In this document: positions 2,806 through 29,747 of the stretch, piece after piece | Position numbering within the stretch: the stretch's first letter is position 1 | Layout: every line of letters begins with the position of its first letter | From: Escherichia coli | Lineage (GTDB): Bacteria > Pseudomonadota > Gammaproteobacteria > Enterobacterales > Enterobacteriaceae | Strand: one strand, 5' to 3' | Length of the DNA: 64,000 nt | Assembly: GCF_003018255.1 (NCBI RefSeq) | Contig: NZ_CP027440.1 | Notes under the pieces: model-generated | Told to the model about the DNA's origin: nothing | The model's input: only the letters and a program-made list of their open reading frames with translations | The model's database searches: none | Program-made: the position numbers and the translations under genes

Positions 2806-3275
2806 ATCCCGTATGCCACAGACCCGGCAGGCAACCGCCTGCCCGACCCGGAGCTGCACCCGGACAGCACCCTCAGCATGTGGCCGGATAACCGTATCGC
2901 CCGTGACGCGCACTATCTTTACCGGTATGACCGTCACGGCAGGCTGACAGAGAAAACCGACCTCATCCCGGAAGGGGTTATCCGCACGGATGATGAGCGG
3001 ACTCACCGGTACCATTACGACAGCCGGCACCGGCTGGTGCACTACACGCGGACACAATATGCAGAGCCGCTGGTCGAAAGCCGCTATCTTTACGACCCGC
3101 TGGGCCGCAGGGTGGCAAAACGGGTGTGGCGGCGTGAACGGGACCTGACGGGCTGGATGTCGCTGTCACGGAAACCGGAAGTGACCTGGTACGGCTGGGA
3201 CGGCGACCGGCTGACCACGATACAGAACGACAGAACCCGCATCCAGACGGTTTATCAGCCGGGGAGCTTCACGCC
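2806..3275 (+). pseudogene. Orphan rhs core fragment, near-identical duplicate of window positions about 938-1395
   Basis: Translation of 2878-3275 matches the rhs ORF almost residue-for-residue ([26 protein letters not shown]...[10 protein letters not shown]); homology breaks at 3275 where the H-rpt sequence starts. Confidence 0.85.
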
Positions 3276-4567
3276 CAGGGAAAGATCATCAGAAGTACAC
3301 TTTTTGTACTAAGTAATTCGCATTTTATGTTTAAAAATCGAGATATTCCTCATTACCTGAAGCTGTTTTTTATTGCGTATACATGATCAAATACTCCTTA
3401 CATAATTAAGGAGAACAAAATGGAACTTAAAAAATTGATGGAACATATTTCTATTATCCCCGATTACAGACAAGCCTGGAAAGTGGAACATAAATTGTCG
3501 GATATTCTACTGTTGACTATTTGTGCCGTTATTTCTGGTGCAGAAGGCTGGGAAGATATAGAGGATTTTGGGGAAACACATCTCGATTTTTTAAAACAAT
3601 ATGGTGATTTTGAAAATGGTATTCCTGTTCACGATACCATCGCCAGAGTTGTATCCTGTATCAGTCCTTCAAAATTTCACGAGTGCTTTATTAACTGGAT
3701 GCGAGATTGCCATACTTCAGATGATAAAGACGTCATCGCAATTGATGGAAAAACACTCCGGCATTCTTATGGCAAGAGTCGCCGCAGGGGAGCGATTCAT
3801 GTCATTAGTGCGTTCTCAACAATGCACAGTCTGGTCATCGGACAGATCAGGACGGATGAGAAATCCAATGAGATTACAGCTATCCCTGAACTTCTTAACA
3901 TGCTGGATATTAAAGGAAAAATAATCACAACTGATGCAATGGGTTGCCAGAAAGATATTGCAGAGAAGATACAAAAACAGGGCGGTGATTATTTATTCGC
4001 TGTAAAAGGAAATCAGGGGCGGCTAAATAAAGCCTTTGAGGAAAAATTCCCACTGAAAGAATTAAATAATCCAGAGCATGACAGTTACGCAATTAGTGAA
4101 AAGAGTCACGGCAGAGAAGAAATCCGTCTTCACATTGTTTGCGATGTCCCTGATGAACTTATTGATTTCACGTTTGAATGGAAAGGTCTGAAGAAATTAT
4201 GCGTGGCAGTCTCCTTTCGGTCAATAATAGCAGAACAAAAGAAAGAGCCAGAAATGACGGTCAGATATTATATCAGTTCTGCTGATTTAACCGCAGAGAA
4301 GTTCGCCATAGCAATCCGAAACCACTGGCACGTGGAGAATAAGCTGCACTGGCGTCTGGACGTGGTAATGAATGAAGACGACTGCAAAATAAGAAGAGGA
4401 AATGCAGCAGAATTATTTTCAGGGATACGGCACATTGCTATTAATATTTTGACGAATGATAAGGTATTCAAGGCAGGGTTAAGACGTAAGATGCGAAAAG
4501 CAGCCATGGACAGAAACTATCTCGCGTCAGTCCTTGCGGGGAGCGGGCTTTCGTAATCTTGCCCTGA
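3276..4567 (+). mobile_element. H-rpt (H-repeat, ISAs1-family) element, full-length copy
   Basis: About 1.3 kb unit containing a 378-aa transposase-like ORF; its 5' leader (3300-3420) and 3' end recur in the adjacent defective copy; boundaries approximate. Confidence 0.7.
3420..4556 (+). CDS. yhhI: H repeat-associated protein / ISAs1-family transposase
   Basis: 378-aa [35 protein letters not shown]... recognised as the H-rpt ORF; SD-like AAGGAG 8 nt upstream. Confidence 0.85.
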
Positions 4568-4613
4568 TCAGACCACCGTTGATCACCATATCCATGAGTT
4601 TATGAATAAAGGG

Positions 4614-5192
4614 CAGGGAAAGATCACGCAACGCTGCTTTTTTGTACTAAATAATTCGCACTAAATATTCAATAATTGAGATATTCCTTATTACCTAAAG
4701 CTGTTTTCCATTGCTTATACATGATCAAATACTCCTTACATAATTAAGGAGAACAAAATGGAACTTAAAAAATTGATGGAACATATTTCTATTATCCCCG
4801 ATTACAGACAAGCCTGGAAAGTGGAGCATAAATTGTCAGATATTCTACTGTTGACTATTTGTGCCGTTATTTCTGGTGCAGAAGGTTGGGAAGATATAGA
4901 GGATTTTGGGGAAACTCATCTCGATTTTTTGAAGCAATATGGTGATTTTGAAAATGGTATTCCTGTTCACGATACCATTGCCAGAGTTGTATCCTGTATC
5001 AGTCCTGAAAAATTTCACGAGTGCTTTATTAACTGGATGCGTGACTGCCATTCTTCAGATGATAAAGACGTCATTGTAATTGATGGAAAAACGCTCCGGC
5101 ACTCTTATGACAAGAGTCGCCGCAGGGGAGCGATTCATGTCATTTCTCGCGTCAGTCCTTGCGGGGAGCGGGCTTTCGTAATCTTGCCCTGA
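4614..5192 (+). mobile_element. Defective second H-rpt copy with large internal deletion
   Basis: Leader and first about 125 codons nearly identical to copy 1, then jumps directly to the last about 15 codons and 3' end of the element (junction near 5143). Confidence 0.7.
4758..5192 (+). pseudogene. Truncated yhhI-like transposase remnant (internal deletion)
   Basis: 144-aa ORF identical at the N-terminus to the 378-aa H-rpt ORF but lacking about 250 internal codons. Confidence 0.8.
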
Positions 5193-5209
5193 ATACCGGA
5201 CTGAGTATA

Positions 5210-5244
<35 letters not shown>

Positions 5245-5345
5245 TGGTCAGTTCATAAACGCCTTATCCGGCCTAAAAAAAACTAAAATTCAATAAATTG
5301 CACCAATGCGTAGACCCTATAAGCTTACGCATCGGGCAACTGTAA

Positions 5346-6473
5346 TTACGCCATTGTCCCAATTGTCTTCCTGAATCTCAACAGTGCGATGGTGAAAAAC
5401 GCGCCGCCAATTGCCATCAGTGTCAGGAACTGCGGCCAGACGATTTCGAATCCGGCACCACGGTAGAGAATGGCCTGCGCGAGGCTAACAAAGTGTGTCG
5501 TCGGCATGGTCAGCATAATGTCCTGCACCATCTGCGGCATACTTTCGCGCGGCGTGGAACCACCGGAAAGCATTTGCAGCGGCAGCAGCACCAGAATCAC
5601 CAGCAGCCCCAGTTGCGGCATTGAACGCGCTATCGTCCCCATAAAAATACCGATTGACGTGGTGGCAAACAGACTGAGCGCCACGCCCAGCATAAACAGC
5701 GGGATCGAGCCTTCTATCGGTACGCCCAGCACGCCTTTTACCATCAGCACCAGCGATAATCCCGACACCACCAGCACCACCAGCCCCATCGACCAGACCT
5801 TTGCCATCATGATCTCAAACGGCGTTATCGGCATCACCAGTAAGTGTTCCACCGTGCCGTGTTCACGCTCGCGGATCAGCGCCGATCCGGTCAATACAAT
5901 CGCCAGCATGGTAATGTTGTTGATGATCGCCATCACCCCGCCAAACCACGCGGGATCAAGGTTCGGGTTAAAGCGCATCCGTGTTTCCAGCGATACCAAC
6001 GGTTCGCTGTTATCACGGTAGCGCGCGACAAAGCTGTTCACTTCACCGTTGATAATATTCTGGATATACCCATTGCCGGTAAATGCCTGGCTCATGCGCG
6101 TGGCATCGACGTTCACCTGAATATCCGGCTGGCGTCCGGCGAGGACATCACGCTGAAAATTAGGCGGAATATTTATCGCGAAGGTATAACGTCCGGCGTC
6201 CAGCCCGGCATCCATCTCATCGGCGGTGATCATCTCCGGTGGCAAAAACCACGGGCGATAGAAGCTGTTAACGATCCGGTTCGATAACTGCGATTGATCC
6301 ATATCGGCAATGGCGATCGGCGCGAGGTTCAACGATCCTGGCGTAACGGTCGCTGACGAATACACCGACACCGTAAACGAGAAGACAATCAGCGTCAGCA
6401 TCGCTTTATCACCGAGCAGACTGCGCAACTCTTTGATACCCAGATTAAAAATATTACGTAAATGGCGCATCAT
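5346..6473 (-). CDS. yhhJ: ABC-2 type transporter permease
   Basis: Hydrophobic 375-aa product; start chosen at MMRHLRNIF, overlapping the rbbA stop; operon position after rbbA. Confidence 0.85.
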
Positions 6474-9205
6474 CCCTCCTGTTTTTTCAGCAGCAGGATG
6501 CTTAAGCCCATCACCAGCGGTATGGCTATCAGCAACGGGATAAAAAGTTGCCACAAATCAGTCAGATCCAGCGCTTTCGAGAACGTTCCGCGGGCGATAG
6601 TCAGAAAATGACTGGTCGGGTAAACCTCGCCGATCCAACGTCCTGGACCTTCCAGCGAAGCTACCGGATCGATCATCCCGGAAAACTGTGTCGCCGGGAT
6701 CAACGTGATAATTGCCGTACCAAAAATGGCGGCAATCTGGCTTTTCATAAAGGTGGAGATCAGCAGCCCCATTCCGGTGGCGATGATGATATACAGCAGC
6801 GCCGCCAGGGTGAGAGTCAGGAAACTGCCTTTATGCGGTACGCCAAATACAAATACCGACAGGGCGCAGAGCAGGAAAAAGTTCAGCATCCCCAGCGCGA
6901 TGTATGGCAGCTGTTTGCCAAGCAAAAATTCGCTACGGGTGGTGGGGGTCACGTAAAGGTTGATAATCGACCCTAGCTCTTTTTCCCGCACCACGCTAAG
7001 GGCGCTTAGCATTGACGGGATCATCATCAGCAGAAGCGGGATCACCGCCGGAACAATCGCCGGCAGGCTTTTTACGTCCGGGTTATAGCGATAGCGCGTC
7101 TCAATATTCATCAGCCCGCTTTGGCTGGCGGGTGTGGACTGTCGGCTCGCCACATCCTGTAGCCAGCTCTGGTGCATGGCCTGCACGTAGCCTTTTACCG
7201 TTTCGGCGCGGCTCGGCATCGCACCGTCGATCCAGACACCGAGTTCCACGGGCGTACCACGCGCGATATCGCGCCCGAAATTAGGAGGGATCTCAATTGC
7301 CACCGTGATATCGCCCGCACGCATCCGACGATCAAGCTCGTCATAACTGGTGAGCGGCGGCTGTTCGATAAAGTAACGGGAACCGGAGAGATTGAGCGTC
7401 CACGCCTGGCTACTGACGGTTTGATCGCGGTCAAGCACCGCAAAGCGCAGGTTTTCCACATCCATACTGATGCCGTAACCCATTATCAGCATCAGGATCA
7501 CCGTTCCCATCAGCGCCAGCGTCGAACGTACCGGATCGCGTCGCAGTTCCAGCGCTTCGCGGCGGCTGTAGCTAAACAGACGGCGCAGGCTAAATCCCTG
7601 ACGCGCCGCGTGGGTGGTGTCGTGTATCACGGGCGGCGCTTCGGCTTCGTTGCTCTGCCCTGCCGCTTCCTGCAAACAGGCGATAAATGCCTCTTCCAGA
7701 CTTGCGGCTCCGCGTTTCTCAACCAGTTCCTGCGGTGTCCCGCTGGCGAGCACTTTTCCGGCGTGCATCAGTGAGATACGGTCGCAACGTTCCGCTTCGT
7801 TCATAAAGTGGGTGGAGATGAAGATAGTCACTTTGTCCTGGCGCGAGAGATCGACCATCAACTGCCAGAACATATCCCTCGCCACCGGATCGACGCCAGA
7901 AGTAGGCTCATCGAGGATTAACATCTCCGGGCGATGAATCACCGCCACCGCCAGCGAAAGCCGCTGGCGAATGCCGAGCGGCAATGACTCCGGCAGAACA
8001 TCTTCAACGTCGTTGAGCTTAAAACGCTCGCTCATTTCAGCCACTCGCGCGGGAATTTCCGCTTCCGGGATGTGAAACAAACGGGCATGTAACTCAAGGT
8101 TTTGCCGCACGGTGAGTTCGTTATAGAGCGAAAACGCCTGCGACATATAGCCTACCCGACGGCGGGTATCGATATCTTTTGGATCAACCGGTTGCCCAAA
8201 CAGCCACGCCTCACCTTCGCTGGCGGGCAGCAGTCCGGTGAGCATTTTCATGGTGGTGGATTTACCGCAGCCGTTCGAACCGAGGAATCCAAAAATCTCC
8301 CCGCGTGGAATGCGGAAATTGACGTGATCAACGGCAACGAAGGAACCAAAACGCATGGTCAGATCGCGCGCTTCGATGGCAATCTCTGCGTTTTCAGGGT
8401 GATACGGTGGGATCACTACCGCCTGATGCGCCTGGCGTTGCGCTTGCGGTAACAGATTTATAAATGCTTCTTCCAGCGTGGCGCTTTGCGTTTGCTGCCG
8501 CAGCTCTTCGGCGCTGCCGGTTGCCAGCACTTCTCCGGCATTCATCGCTACCAGCCAGTCGAAGCGTTCGGCCTCTTCCATGTAGGCGGTGGCGACCAGC
8601 ACGCTCATATTGCTCTGCCGCTGGCGAATGCTGTCGATCAAATCCCAGAACTGGGCGCGGGAGAGCGGGTCAACCCCCGTTGTTGGCTCATCAAGAATCA
8701 ACAGTTCCGGGTCGTGGATTAACGCACAGCACAGCCCAAGTTTTTGCTTCATCCCGCCGGAGAGTTTCCCTGCCGGACGATCACGAAACGGTGCTAACCC
8801 GGTGCTGGTCAGCAGCTCATTGATTCGCACTTCCCGCTCCGCTTTGTCGTGACCGAACAGGCGAGCGAAAAAATCGACGTTTTCATACACCGACAAGGTG
8901 TGGTAGAGGTTTTTGCCCAGCCCCTGCGGCATCCAGGCGATGCGCGGGCAAACGTCGCGGCGATGCTTCGGGTCGCGCATATCGCCGCCCAGCACCATCA
9001 CGCTGCCCTGCTCAATGACGCGGGCACCGGAAATCAACGACAACAAGCTCGATTTACCGACACCATCCGGTCCAATCAGCCCGACCATGCAACGGGCCGG
9101 AATATCGAGTGTGATATTGTTCAGCGCAACGGTTTTTCCATAATGCTGGCTCACGCCCGCCAGTTGCGCGACAGGCGGGACGGGAACCAGTTCCAGATGC
9201 GTCAT
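6470..9205 (-). CDS. rbbA: Ribosome-associated ATPase, fused tandem ABC ATPase domains plus permease domain
   Basis: 911-aa ORF with two Walker A motifs ([18 protein letters not shown]) and ABC signature LSGGMKQK, C-terminal membrane domain. Confidence 0.9.
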
Positions 9206-24280: not shown

Positions 24281-24634
24281 ATGTCATTTCTGTTACCCAT
24301 TCAACTGTTCAAAATTCTTGCTGATGAGACCCGTCTGGGCATCGTTTTACTGCTTAGCGAACTGGGAGAGTTATGCGTCTGCGATCTCTGCACTGCCCTC
24401 GATCAGTCGCAGCCCAAGATATCCCGCCATCTGTCATTGCTGCGTGAAAGTGGGCTATTGCTGGATCGCAAGCAAGGTAAGTGGGTTCATTACCGCTTAT
24501 CACCGCATATTCCAGCATGGGCGGCGAAAATTATTGATGAGGCCTGGCGATGTGAACAGGAAAAGGTTCAGGTGATTGTCCGCAACCTGGCTCGACAAAA
24601 TTGTTCCGCAGACAGTAAGAACATTTGCAGTTAA
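24281..24634 (+). CDS. arsR: Arsenical resistance operon repressor
   Basis: 117 aa, metal-binding ELCVCDLC motif in the HTH region. Confidence 0.95.
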   Translation: MSFLLPIQLFKILADETRLGIVLLLSELGELCVCDLCTALDQSQPKISRHLSLLRESGLLLDRKQGKWVHYRLSPHIPAWAAKIIDEAWRCEQEKVQVIVRNLARQNCSADSKNICS

Positions 24635-25990: not shown

Positions 25991-26416
25991 ATGAGCAACA
26001 TTACCATTTATCACAACCCGGCCTGCGGCACGTCGCGTAACACGCTGGAGATGATCCGCAACAGCGGCACAGAACCGACCATTGTCTATTATCTGGAAAC
26101 CCCACCGACGCGTGATGAACTGGTCAAACTCATTGCCGATATGGGGATTTCCGTACGCGCGCTGCTGCGTAAAAACGTCGAGCCGTATGAGGAACTGGGC
26201 CTTGCAGAAGATAAATTTACTGACGATCGGTTAATCGACTTTATGCTTCAGCACCCGATTCTGATTAATCGCCCGATTGTGGTGACGCCGTTGGGAACTC
26301 GCCTGTGCCGCCCTTCAGAAGTCGTGCTGGAAATTCTGCCAGATGCGCAACAAGGCGCGTTCACCAAGGAAGATGGCGAGAAAGTGGTTGATGAAGCGGG
26401 TAAACGCTTGAAATAA
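25991..26416 (+). CDS. arsC: Arsenate reductase (glutaredoxin-coupled)
   Basis: 141 aa, MSNITIYHNPACGTSRNTLEMIR catalytic Cys12 motif. Confidence 0.95.
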   Translation: MSNITIYHNPACGTSRNTLEMIRNSGTEPTIVYYLETPPTRDELVKLIADMGISVRALLRKNVEPYEELGLAEDKFTDDRLIDFMLQHPILINRPIVVTPLGTRLCRPSEVVLEILPDAQQGAFTKEDGEKVVDEAGKRLK

Positions 26417-26462
26417 AGCGGCGATATCCACTGCCCATAGTTGGTAAAGTGCGCTTTGTTTA

Positions 26463-26500
26463 TGTCGGATGCGACGCTAACGCGTCTTATCCGACCTACA
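26463..26500. repeat. REP-like palindromic element downstream of arsC
   Basis: GTCGGATGCGACGCTAACGCGTCTTATCCGACCTAC resembles the REP consensus. Confidence 0.5.
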
Positions 26501-26538
26501 AAACCGTGCATGGCATGAAATCTGTAGCGCGTAGCGCA

Positions 26539-26835
26539 TCAGGCAATTTTGCTATTTACGCAGCACTCCTCGCGTAAGAATTCAATTATCGCTTCCAGCA
26601 TTGCGTATTGCGAAACACACATCAGCGTTCGACTCTCACGGTTTTGTTTGACCAGCCCTACCGATACCAGTGCTGAAATATGGTGACTGAGTGTAGAGCC
26701 GGGTATCCCAAGCTGCTTTTGCAACTCACCGACCGGCAACCCTTGTTCCCCGGCTTTGACAAGATGTTTAAATATGAACAAACGGGTCGGGTGACCTAGC
26801 TCTTTCAGCGCTTTAGCGACTTCTTCCAACTGCAT
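26539..26835 (-). CDS. ArsR/SmtB-family transcriptional regulator with C-terminal vicinal cysteines
   Basis: wHTH signature GIPGSTLSHHISALVSVGLVK; C-terminus ...EFLREECCVNSKIA; start set at MQLEEVAKALKEL with SD GAGGGGG about 6 nt upstream (ORF track gives a longer 119-aa form). Confidence 0.75.
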   Translation of the reverse strand: MQLEEVAKALKELGHPTRLFIFKHLVKAGEQGLPVGELQKQLGIPGSTLSHHISALVSVGLVKQNRESRTLMCVSQYAMLEAIIEFLREECCVNSKIA

Positions 26836-26941
26836 ATGATCCCCCTCTGTCTGGTTGATATTTCGATAATACCAGAAATATCTTGATCTGAATTTCATTT
26901 CGATTATTCTGGAAATATAGATTTATTCAATGAGGTTATGT

Positions 26942-27943
26942 ATGAGTAGTTGGCTTGCGATGCTGCAAGATGCCACAGAGATGTTTGTGTTTCTCGCCGT
27001 CGAGCTTTCTTTGCTGTTTATAGTGATTAGTGCCGGTGTGAGCCTGATAAGACAAAAGGTGCCAGACCATAAAATCCAGCAGATGATGGGGGCAAGAAAA
27101 GGGAAAGGCTATCTCCTGGCTGCTCTGTTGGGAGCCGTCACCCCGTTCTGTAGTTGCTCGACAATCCCTATGTTACGTGGATTGTTATCAGCGAAAGCCG
27201 GGTTTGGTCCGACCCTCACTTTTTTATTTGTTTCCCCATTACTTAATCCCATTATCGTCGGGTTAATGTGGGTGACCTTTGGCTGGAAAGTTACCTTGTT
27301 GTATGCGATTATCGCCGCCGGCGTCTCCGTACTTGCCAGTATTATCCTCGATTCTCTGGGATTTGAACGTCATATCATTGCCAGTAAAAGCTCATCAGCA
27401 AATTGTTGTGCTCCAGCCAAAACTTCGCCGGGGACGACATATACGCCAATAAAAGTGAGTTGCTGTAGTCCAGCGGCTAAAGCCATTGAGAAACCTGTAG
27501 TAAACTGTTGCAGTACCAAAGCTGTGGTAAGTATTAATCCCATAAAACTAGCCACCAAAGATGCGTTGCAACAGTTTAAAGATGTACTGCCATATCTTTT
27601 GTTAGGGGTATTAATAGGCTCTTTTATTTATGGCTTTATTCCCTCAGAGTGGATTGCCGCTCATGCAGGGGCAGATAATCCCTTCGCCATCCCATTGAGC
27701 GCCGTTGTCGGTATTCCGCTATATATCCGGGCAGAGGCGGTTATCCCTCTGGCATCTGTTCTGATGACAAAAGGAATGGGTCTGGGAGCATTAATGGCAT
27801 TAATCATCGGCAGTGCCGGCGCAAGCCTGACGGAAGTGATATTACTTAAATCAATGTTCAGAATACCGATGATAGTTGCATTCCTGACGGTTATATTAGG
27901 TATGGCTATCTTGATGGGCTATTTGACTCAAATGCTATTTTAA
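26942..27943 (+). CDS. ArsP-like permease (DUF318/COG0701 family) with TPFCSCS motif and a cysteine-rich central loop
   Basis: Polytopic membrane protein; motif GAVTPFCSCSTIP; central loop with three CC pairs (NCCAPAK, SCCSPAAK, NCCSTK); start set at MSSWLAML preceded by GAGGT (ORF track starts 4 codons earlier). Confidence 0.7.
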   Translation: MSSWLAMLQDATEMFVFLAVELSLLFIVISAGVSLIRQKVPDHKIQQMMGARKGKGYLLAALLGAVTPFCSCSTIPMLRGLLSAKAGFGPTLTFLFVSPLLNPIIVGLMWVTFGWKVTLLYAIIAAGVSVLASIILDSLGFERHIIASKSSSANCCAPAKTSPGTTYTPIKVSCCSPAAKAIEKPVVNCCSTKAVVSINPIKLATKDALQQFKDVLPYLLLGVLIGSFIYGFIPSEWIAAHAGADNPFAIPLSAVVGIPLYIRAEAVIPLASVLMTKGMGLGALMALIIGSAGASLTEVILLKSMFRIPMIVAFLTVILGMAILMGYLTQMLF

Positions 27944-28523
27944 ATAGATGCCAGCAGTAAACTATAAGGAGCATTGTGAGTGCCTTATCCTTCTGAGTAG
28001 AAAATCATAGATAGGATAATCCTTAAAAATCACAAATAACTTAACTAATGCTTTGAGAATGATGACGGATCCGTCAGTAAGTTATCAATCGACAATCACC
28101 ACGCAATCATGCTTCTCTGACATTTTATCGGAGAAGCAATGTCTCTTTGTTTCAGTGCTATCCCCCCTTTTAAAGGGCAGATTTCAGTCGCCAATACAAC
28201 ACATTTTTAAATACACTTTAACCTGGTTCATTATTACACATCTAAAACATCACAAAAATATCACTTCACACACTATCGGTGAACATCATAACTTTTTAAA
28301 ATGAGCGCTTTTTGATAGTTGTTAACGTTTTCCTTTACGATACTATCACTGCCCTTTTTTTATACACAAATATTACCGGGTGGAAATGAAAGGGAAGTTA
28401 AAGGTAATTATATCAGGAAGATATGACGCATTGTGTTTATTTCCGCGTAGAAGAAAATCCATTCCTGCTCTAATTCTCCGATTTACAAAAATTTAGCGAA
28501 ATAGATGAACAATAAGGAATGTT

Positions 28524-29747
28524 ATGTCAATTGACTTTACCCCATGTATGATAAATACATATCACGGCGATATTTATAACCGCACAACAGATACCGACAA
28601 TGTTAAAACACCAGACACACCGAAGTGGCCTTGCGATAATTGGGAAGAACAACAACCCATTAATTCCACATTCTCTGGAGAAGGATATACCTCTGATCAA
28701 TATGATTTAGCGCAATACCAACTTCAACAAATTAATGCGTGCCACACGAACACTACATATACAAATGCAGACTACTCAAAAGTTGTGGCTCAACTTGTAA
28801 GTCTTATTACTAACATTGAAACGATAAGTTCGACACAACTTACGCAACAGACACAATCAATACTTAATCAGATTAATAACATTAGATACGAAAAAAACAA
28901 AAGTGCTGAATATCGAATCATTGTTGTCGCTAATCCTAAACCCGACAAGGCAATCATAACTAAAATTAGCGTAGAAGAGGGAATACCAGTAAGATTCAGT
29001 GTCCAAACCATGTTTTCAGATACTAATTTTATTACTGAACAACGAGCTGACTTACCGACTAATATAAAAGATATTCAAAGCCTGTATCAAAAAATGACGA
29101 AGTTATATATTGAACACAGTGAAAATAAAAACAGGATGAAAGTCTTTGCTGGAACCAACTTTATTGATTTCAATGTGACAGGACAGGACCTTTCCGGGTT
29201 CGTTCTAACCTTGTCAAGGTTTTATTTCGAAGATCTACTTAATATAAATTTCACTGACGCAAATTTAGGTGACACTATTTTTTCACATAAAGAACACCCT
29301 ACCCCAAAATTATATAAAGACGAACAATATCTTGACAAACAAATCGAAGGTTTATTTTCAACATTATTAACCATTAATGACAACTTTTTACGAGCAAAAG
29401 CGGAAATTGCTTCGACAATAATTAAATTCTTAGAGGCCAGGATAACCAATATTTCATACAATGACATATTAAAATATCAGCAAGAATTCAAAAAACAATG
29501 TTATAAGCAAGTTAAAGCCTTTACGACACTCTCCCGATACAATAAAATTCAAACATGGGCAGAAATGTCTGAATATCAATTCGAAGTATTTCAATACGAG
29601 ACGCTTAACCCAAAAAAAATGTCATACGCACCTTATTTAAAGAGATCGCTACCTGATGAAAAAACTATAAATTATGGGGTGGAAATAGAAACACCAACTG
29701 GCAAAAGAATTCGCTTATTAAATCATTACCAGAATATAATCCCATAA
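28524..29747 (+). CDS. yhiS: YhiS-like hypothetical protein, intact
   Basis: 407-aa AT-rich ORF immediately upstream of slp; call rests on position and product size, not on motif recognition. Confidence 0.6.

Follow-up and report, generated by a model that had tools for sequence, protein, structure and literature searches.

We analyzed a divergent gene pair located directly downstream of arsRBC in a 64,000-nucleotide stretch of the Escherichia coli contig NZ_CP027440.1 (RefSeq assembly GCF_003018255.1); this whole stretch is referred to as the window. One gene codes for a small repressor of the ArsR/SmtB family and the other for a permease. The pair is probably a self-contained resistance module for trivalent organoarsenicals (methylarsenite and, probably, reduced roxarsone or phenylarsenite), which would be induced by its own substrate. 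A preliminary description of this DNA had read the pair as an accessory efflux module for metalloids or organoarsenicals, equipped with a sensor of its own, and the organoarsenical reading is now supported by assignment of the repressor to the type of SpArsR from Shewanella putrefaciens 200, by orthology of the permease to the arsP gene product controlled by SpArsR, and by conservation of an operator in the spacer. Trivalent organoarsenicals such as methylarsenite, as both substrate and inducer, are a specific and testable prediction.

Gene order in this part of the window is gor, dinQ, arsR (24281-24634), arsB, arsC (25991-26416), a repetitive extragenic palindromic (REP)-type repeat and the pair, whose divergent genes are separated by a spacer of 106 bp. 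All features previously described for this arrangement, a divergent repressor/permease pair directly after arsRBC and a REP element, were recovered where they had been placed. RefSeq calls the same two coding sequences and names them only 'ArsR/SmtB family transcription factor' and 'permease'; a literature search found no paper naming the E. coli pair. The assigned features, with their evidence in parentheses, are as follows.

26539..26835, minus strand: gene for the SpArsR-type ArsR/SmtB repressor, 98 amino acids, with Cys73, Cys91 and Cys92 (Pfam matches, identity to SpArsR)
26560..26565, minus strand: codons for Cys92 and Cys91, predicted two-coordinate site for trivalent organoarsenicals (alignment with AfArsR and SpArsR)
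26858..26881, no strand: putative operator 1, ATATTTCGATAATACCAGAAATAT, a 7-bp inverted repeat around a 10-bp centre (cross-species conservation)
26896..26917, no strand: putative operator 2, CATTTCGATTATTCTGGAAATA (TTTC-N10-GAAA architecture)
26942..27943, plus strand: gene for the ArsP-type permease, 333 amino acids (PF03773 match, homology)
27140..27160, plus strand: TPFCSCS motif, residues 67-73 with Cys70 and Cys72, predicted intramembrane substrate site (ArsP alignment)
27356..27565, plus strand: central loop of the permease, residues 139-208, disordered and hypervariable (predicted model, homolog comparison)
Codons 27404-27409, 27461-27466 and 27506-27511, plus strand: three Cys-Cys pairs in the central loop (sequence)
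26436..26538, no strand: REP-type repeat separating arsC from the repressor gene (context, outside the module)

The repressor had been described as a winged helix-turn-helix protein of the ArsR/SmtB family ending in EECCVNSKIA, and profile searches agreed: it matched Pfam HTH_20 (2.4e-14) and HTH_5 (1.3e-6) and scored 61.9 bits on the NCBIfam model HTH_metalloreg (NF033788), above the cutoff of 55. The closest solved structure was AfArsR (6J05, E 4.7e-10). Cys91-Cys92 aligned exactly with Cys95-Cys96 of AfArsR and Cys101-Cys102 of SpArsR. The third ligand of AfArsR, Cys102, has no counterpart, because the E. coli repressor stops six residues past Cys92 (CCVNSKIA) and contains no Cys in this tail. 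Identity to SpArsR was 54-56%, and Cys 83/101/102 of SpArsR were all matched by Cys 73/91/92. The first of these, Cys73 (nt 26617-26619), is located 18 residues before the Cys-Cys (CC) pair and is absent in AfArsR. Type-1 ArsRs, including the window ArsR about 2 kb upstream, were 23-27% identical to the repressor, which lacks their CVC motif (helix-3 region GLPVGEL vs. ELCVCDL in type 1). On these alignments, the repressor is a two-cysteine, type-2 regulator of the SpArsR type, a more specific assignment than the earlier one to an ArsR variant with C-terminal cysteines.

SpArsR is reportedly selective for methylarsenite, a property attributed to its missing third cysteine (PMC11868830; PMC13236881). 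In an independent biosensor, which paired SpArsR with the 222-bp arsP promoter and had E. coli MG1655 delta-arsRBC as host, derepression reached 73% of the full level at 1 µM methylarsenite and only 9% at 50 µM arsenite, and there was no response to pentavalent species or dimethylarsenite (PMC12124457). The SpArsR sequence used in our comparison was rebuilt from the codon-optimised construct in the supplement of PMC12124457, after repair of two single-base losses in the machine-read text. The rebuilt protein has Cys at positions 83, 101 and 102 as published and was matched exactly in Shewanella sp. W3-18-1 and other assemblies.

Occurrence of the pair in other organisms was surveyed by scanning one genome per species. 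We detected 80 loci with permease orthologs (47-74% identical), mostly from marine Gammaproteobacteria, and in 47 of them an SpArsR-type repressor was divergent and within 700 bp. The CC pair and the Cys 18 residues upstream were both present in all but one of these 47 regulators (46/47). The same divergent arrangement was also found in Shewanella, Aeromonas, Citrobacter and plasmids. A MerR-type regulator was sought beside orthologs lacking a divergent repressor; in the 18 loci inspected, the neighbours were unrelated genes.

Kinship of the permease with ArsP, previously proposed, held in a profile search, in which PF03773 (ArsP_1) was matched from end to end (1.8e-52, residues 9-330). The permease was 53% identical to the arsP product divergent from SpArsR in Shewanella and 36% identical (58% similar, over full length, E 4e-68) to the characterized Campylobacter jejuni ArsP, taken here as P0529, a 315-residue protein of class TC 2.A.119 encoded in an arsP-arsR-arsC-acr3 operon. 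Cys70 and Cys72 of the permease aligned with Cys65 and Cys67 of C. jejuni ArsP, two conserved residues (C65/C67) that were reportedly found by Chen et al. in 2015 to be required for activity. C. jejuni ArsP exports methylarsenite and trivalent roxarsone, and does not export arsenite or pentavalent forms (review PMC6205960). A second PF03773 protein of the Shewanella island, encoded directly before a thioredoxin-like gene, was 30% identical to the permease and had no Cys-Cys loop. Judged by this homology, the permease is an ortholog of the SpArsR-controlled Shewanella arsP; the sequence comparison between subfamilies covered C. jejuni ArsP and the thioredoxin-linked Shewanella paralog.

The TPFCSCS motif noticed earlier is indeed present at residues 67-73 of the permease. 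It had been taken to be characteristic of ArsP, which proved too narrow: CSC/TPFCSCS is the top conserved motif across the PF03773 superfamily, including SO_0444 Cu/Zn exporters and SaoE, and was at least 90% conserved in our 90-sequence family alignment. The best curated NCBIfam matches of the permease were SO_0444 (NF033936; 109.3 bits vs. a cutoff of 300) and SaoE (NF040736; 85.7 vs. 325), and C. jejuni ArsP itself had about the same sub-threshold scores on both models (88 bits on SO_0444). Read in this way, the scores are a sign of superfamily membership only; NCBIfam has no ArsP model, and failing the two cutoffs does not separate ArsP from other members. No Sao-type ABC importer genes were annotated among the neighbours in this region of the window (arsC, yhiS, slp).

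The spacer provides further evidence. The 20-bp core of operator 1, TTCGATAATACCAGAAATAT, occurs only once in the window, and the number of chance matches expected there is 0. It was identical in an E. coli plasmid copy, Aeromonas, Citrobacter and the SpArsR/arsP spacer of Shewanella W3-18-1, and was found with at most 3 mismatches in 31 of the 47 spacers of other species, compared with 6-12 (mostly 8-10) mismatches in control regions of the same length. Operator 2 has the TTTC-N10-GAAA architecture of operator 1; a full match occurred in Aeromonas, and near-matches, judged by eye, in the E. coli plasmid and Citrobacter spacers. Operator 1 lies within a promoter-like TTGATA-18-TATCTT (26855-26884, plus strand), and operator 2 within a promoter-like TTGAAT-16-AATAAT (26930-26903, minus strand).

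In the proposed mechanism, a repressor dimer would bind both TTTC-N10-GAAA operators and, because each operator is inside a promoter-like site, would block expression of the permease as well as of itself. A trivalent organoarsenical, for which two sulfur ligands suffice, would bind Cys91-Cys92 at the end of the C-terminal dimerization helix; the repressor would then leave the DNA and transcription would start. Inorganic arsenite should induce poorly, because it needs three sulfur ligands. The permease would function as a secondary exporter of the ArsP type, driven by the proton motive force, with its substrate held by Cys70/Cys72 at a mid-membrane helix break and then expelled. With inorganic arsenic handled by the neighbouring arsRBC, the locus would cover both forms. 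We infer the inducer, substrate, energy coupling, promoters and membrane topology in this scheme.

An AlphaFold2 model of the permease, built from the 90-sequence alignment (predicted local distance difference test, pLDDT, 88.3; predicted template modeling score, pTM, 0.84), contained two similar halves. TPFCSCS was located at the break between helices 52-66 and 71-83, and a conserved GIPLYIRAE segment at the matching helix break in the second half. Model confidence was low at approximately residues 151-200 (block-mean pLDDT 48-69, and <50 at 173-189). A sequence search against solved structures gave no match, and a Foldseek search of the PDB detected no significant match to the model (best E 0.7, a weak likeness to TRAP/DASS elevator transporters). 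Matches in AFDB50 were all named 'Permease' only.

The low-confidence segment belongs to the Cys-rich central loop, to which the preliminary description had drawn attention. Its three CC pairs (residues 155-156, 174-175 and 189-190; NCCAPAK, SCCSPAAK and NCCSTKA) are real, and at least 3 such pairs occurred in just 75 of 200,000 loop shuffles, but the pairs are not a defining feature. In enterobacterial and Aeromonas homologs the loop has 64-109 residues and 1-4 pairs (mostly 2-4), and CC pairs are enriched in the closest clade, reaching seven; no CC pair was found in the loop of 31 of the 80 orthologous loci, including 21 of the 47 with the repressor (loop boundaries in this count are approximate). 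Because it is hypervariable and CC-free in these 31 loci, the CC-rich loop is, on sequence comparison, an optional addition outside the core mechanism. Family-wide, loops 37-55 and 302-309 are strongly positive, the N-terminus and loop 232-250 are negative, and the central loop averages about 7.6 Lys+Arg; from this charge pattern we infer that the central loop is cytoplasmic.

A conceivable, although doubtful, role for the loop is that of a built-in capture arm, in which vicinal pairs would bind trivalent organoarsenicals and pass them by thiol exchange to Cys70/Cys72, in the manner of a chaperone fused to the pump. Each pair would hold one organoarsenical by the same two-sulfur chemistry as the repressor. 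Given that the loop is absent in many orthologs and that its copy number varies among strains and plasmids, it could also modulate capacity or the range of substrates, which might then extend to other thiophilic organometal(loid)s.

Several observations weigh against the organoarsenical assignment. Both E. coli proteins have been characterized by sequence only; identity of the permease to the sole characterized ArsP is just 36%; and our literature search found no transport study for the Shewanella arsP beside SpArsR. The sigma-70-like promoters, one toward each gene, are consensus matches only, and the equivalent of Cys73 has no assigned role though it is kept in 46 of 47 relatives. An extra Cys 4-5 residues after the pair, resembling the three-Cys site of AfArsR, was present in 14 of the 47 relatives, mainly Vibrio, so the effector range appears to vary within the regulator family. 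Recognizable ars genes were detected within 10 kb in only about 9 of the 80 orthologous loci; by impression, this linkage is above chance, and it is far from universal. Finally, Cys-rich loops are typical of soft-metal binding, and the best curated NCBIfam match of the permease is SO_0444, in a superfamily that includes a Cu/Zn exporter.

These last points would fit an SO_0444-like efflux module for soft metals (Cu(I), Zn, Cd, Hg or Ag), in which the CC loop and the CSC motif, the latter shared with SO_0444, would bind the metal and the repressor would sense it. SO_0444 is required for growth under Zn or Cu stress (PMC3219624), and most marine orthologs of the permease have no ars neighbours. 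However, the score of 109 bits is far under the cutoff of 300, a proven methylarsenite pump, C. jejuni ArsP, scores alike on the same model, and SO_0444 is partnered by a regulator of the MerR/ZntR type (PMC3219624), whereas the pair has an SpArsR ortholog with a conserved operator and is repeatedly linked to arsRBC, arsRDABC and arsH. We consider a soft-metal module unlikely. Among the canonical metal-site motifs of ArsR/SmtB proteins, as far as we know them, none was evident in the 98-residue repressor (no systematic search was made), which is a further argument against metal sensing.

It is also improbable that the pair backs up ArsR/ArsB by providing another sensor and another pump for inorganic arsenite or antimonite. 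Such a function would be consistent with location directly beside arsRBC, with membership of the repressor in the As(III)-sensing, type-2 lineage of AfArsR, and with the third Cys 4-5 residues past the pair in 14 of 47 relatives. However, SpArsR, which has the same three cysteines, barely responds to 50 µM arsenite (PMC12124457), C. jejuni ArsP does not export arsenite (PMC6205960), and the third Cys is missing from the E. coli repressor itself. All of these alternatives, including the one that follows, are less well supported than the organoarsenical module. A thiol, persulfide or oxidant sensor of the BigR/YgaV type that controls a sulfur-compound exporter is very improbable, since the weak matches of the repressor to BigR (38.5 bits) and YgaV (3CUO, E 2e-7) and an AhpC/redoxin gene after the regulator in Shewanella sp. 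D64 are opposed by a BigR score far under the cutoff of 155, by AfArsR as the closest solved relative, by ars linkage and SpArsR orthology, which point elsewhere, and by the use of two distant cysteines, not a vicinal pair, in BigR-type sensors.

Distribution of the pair among E. coli, suggested as a check in the preliminary description, was assessed in complete genomes: the pair (at least 80% of the query covered) was present in 2221-2224 of 5426, about 41%. Its absence at this position in K-12, stated in the same description, was confirmed: K-12-type and O157-type genomes run from arsC straight to the yhiS region. K-12-type sequence retains a decayed remnant, the last ~67 bp of the repressor gene (window 26541-26608 vs. 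2360-2430 of the K-12-type stretch), with 82% identity over the aligned arsC-to-remnant block and about 105 bp of non-aligning sequence thereafter; window positions from about 26609 to 28214 are missing. This pattern marks a deletion of about 1.6 kb in K-12-type genomes, not an insertion in carriers. From the remnant and the missing block, the pair is ancestral at this site and has been deleted in K-12- and O157-type lineages.

Another chromosomal version was observed in E. coli E69 (CP089930.1; 9600-10996 of the examined stretch). This second version of the pair, which has diverged in sequence (permease 74% and repressor 86% identical), occupies a different position on the chromosome, and ars genes are absent from the surrounding 10 kb. 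Therefore, at least 2 chromosomal lineages of the module occur in E. coli, besides plasmid ones.

Homologs with 68-90% identity, every one of them named 'permease', were found in E. fergusonii, Salmonella, Enterobacter, Proteus, Citrobacter and Aeromonas. The Citrobacter pair comes after arsRDABC and, together with it, is cargo in a lambdoid prophage, flanked by replication genes on one side and dinI/rusA/lysis genes on the other (3230-9092 of the examined stretches). A protein search of PLSDB identified 1001 plasmids, with ~650 enterobacterial copies at 60-99% identity, most of them on conjugative plasmids; many of the sources were chickens, pigs and people. Carriers include pESI-like plasmids of Salmonella Infantis and IncHI2 plasmids of chicken and pig origin. 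In one of the pESI-like plasmids (4770-8038 of the examined stretch), arsH, a sigma-70-family gene and an arsD-family gene come after the repressor gene in the same orientation. Presence of a sigma-factor gene inside an ars cluster is unusual. The pESI paper names arsH, arsD and arsA and does not mention the permease (PMC12504007).

In the species survey, ars-linked loci included Aeromonas tecta, Buttiauxella, two Endozoicomonas and two Shewanella. The pair was near arsC-arsB-arsR-arsH in Buttiauxella and in large ars islands in Aeromonas tecta and Shewanella. In the two Endozoicomonas loci, the permease gene closely follows arsD-arsA in the same direction, and an Acr3-like gene is located upstream of these. 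This arrangement hints that some members of the permease clade may work with the ArsA ATPase. Variation was also seen on the regulator side: regulators of Vibrio and relatives with the extra Cys after the pair carry another Cys in the preceding helix. By analogy with AfArsR, Vibrio-type regulators with the extra Cys may sense inorganic arsenite.

Two alternative gene starts were rejected. A repressor start at 26898 (an open reading frame, ORF, of 119 residues) would cross both operators, and RefSeq and all orthologs begin with MQLEE; for the permease, 26942 was preferred over 26930 on the basis of GAGG upstream of the former and agreement with RefSeq and orthologs. Within the REP-type repeat, nt 26463-26500 occur at 100% identity in many other sites of E. 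coli genomes. An Rfam scan of the region detected nothing beyond a sub-threshold match to the REP-derived nucleoid-associated RNA naRNA4 (26463-26495; 29.7 bits vs. a gathering score of 59.5). After the permease gene, an ORF of 407 residues (28524-29747) is intact in the window; its K-12-type equivalent is annotated as incomplete, with the C-terminus missing, and has an IS5 transposase after it.

Methylarsenite and reduced roxarsone, which form in guts, soils and poultry production, greatly exceed inorganic arsenic in toxicity. If the proposed function is correct, a sensor and pump for organoarsenicals that annotation leaves unnamed is present in about 41% of sequenced E. coli and on several hundred enterobacterial plasmids, most of them conjugative. 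Such a distribution would matter for the co-selection of antibiotic resistance through arsenical feed additives. Loss of the pair would also explain why K-12 is a sensitive host for arsenic genetics, and biosensors would gain a methylarsenite-responsive promoter and repressor native to E. coli. The main value is practical, i.e., a widespread and mobile determinant has been left unannotated.

Among known systems, SpArsR (Sput200_1227) and arsP (Sput200_1226) of Shewanella putrefaciens 200, the latter so named as the gene divergent from SpArsR (PMC12124457), have the same divergent arrangement as the E. coli pair. The Shewanella arsP product (332 residues, PF03773) also contains three Cys-Cys pairs in its central loop. 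Differences include a 10-residue N-terminal extension of SpArsR that the E. coli repressor lacks, a spacer of 222 bp in Shewanella vs. 106 bp in E. coli, and the surroundings: the Shewanella pair is inside a large ars island (arsC, second arsR and arsP, gapdh-arsJ), whereas the E. coli pair follows arsRBC. C. jejuni ArsP shares the PF03773 fold and the CSC cysteines with the E. coli permease, but its equivalent loop is shorter and has one Cys-Cys pair, its gene is in an operon under a type-1 (CVC) ArsR, and it is too distant for the same substrate to be assumed. AfArsR of Acidithiobacillus ferrooxidans (PDB 6J05) is likewise a type-2 regulator; however, it senses inorganic arsenite and has the third ligand Cys102, for which the E. 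coli repressor has no equivalent. SO_0444 and SaoE belong to the same superfamily as the permease and share the CSC motif, but differ from the E. coli pair in regulator type and gene neighbourhood. Finally, the window ArsR (24281-24634), of the E. coli chromosomal/R773 type, belongs to the same superfamily and locus as the repressor but is 24% identical to it and has an N-terminal three-cysteine site, ELCVCDL.

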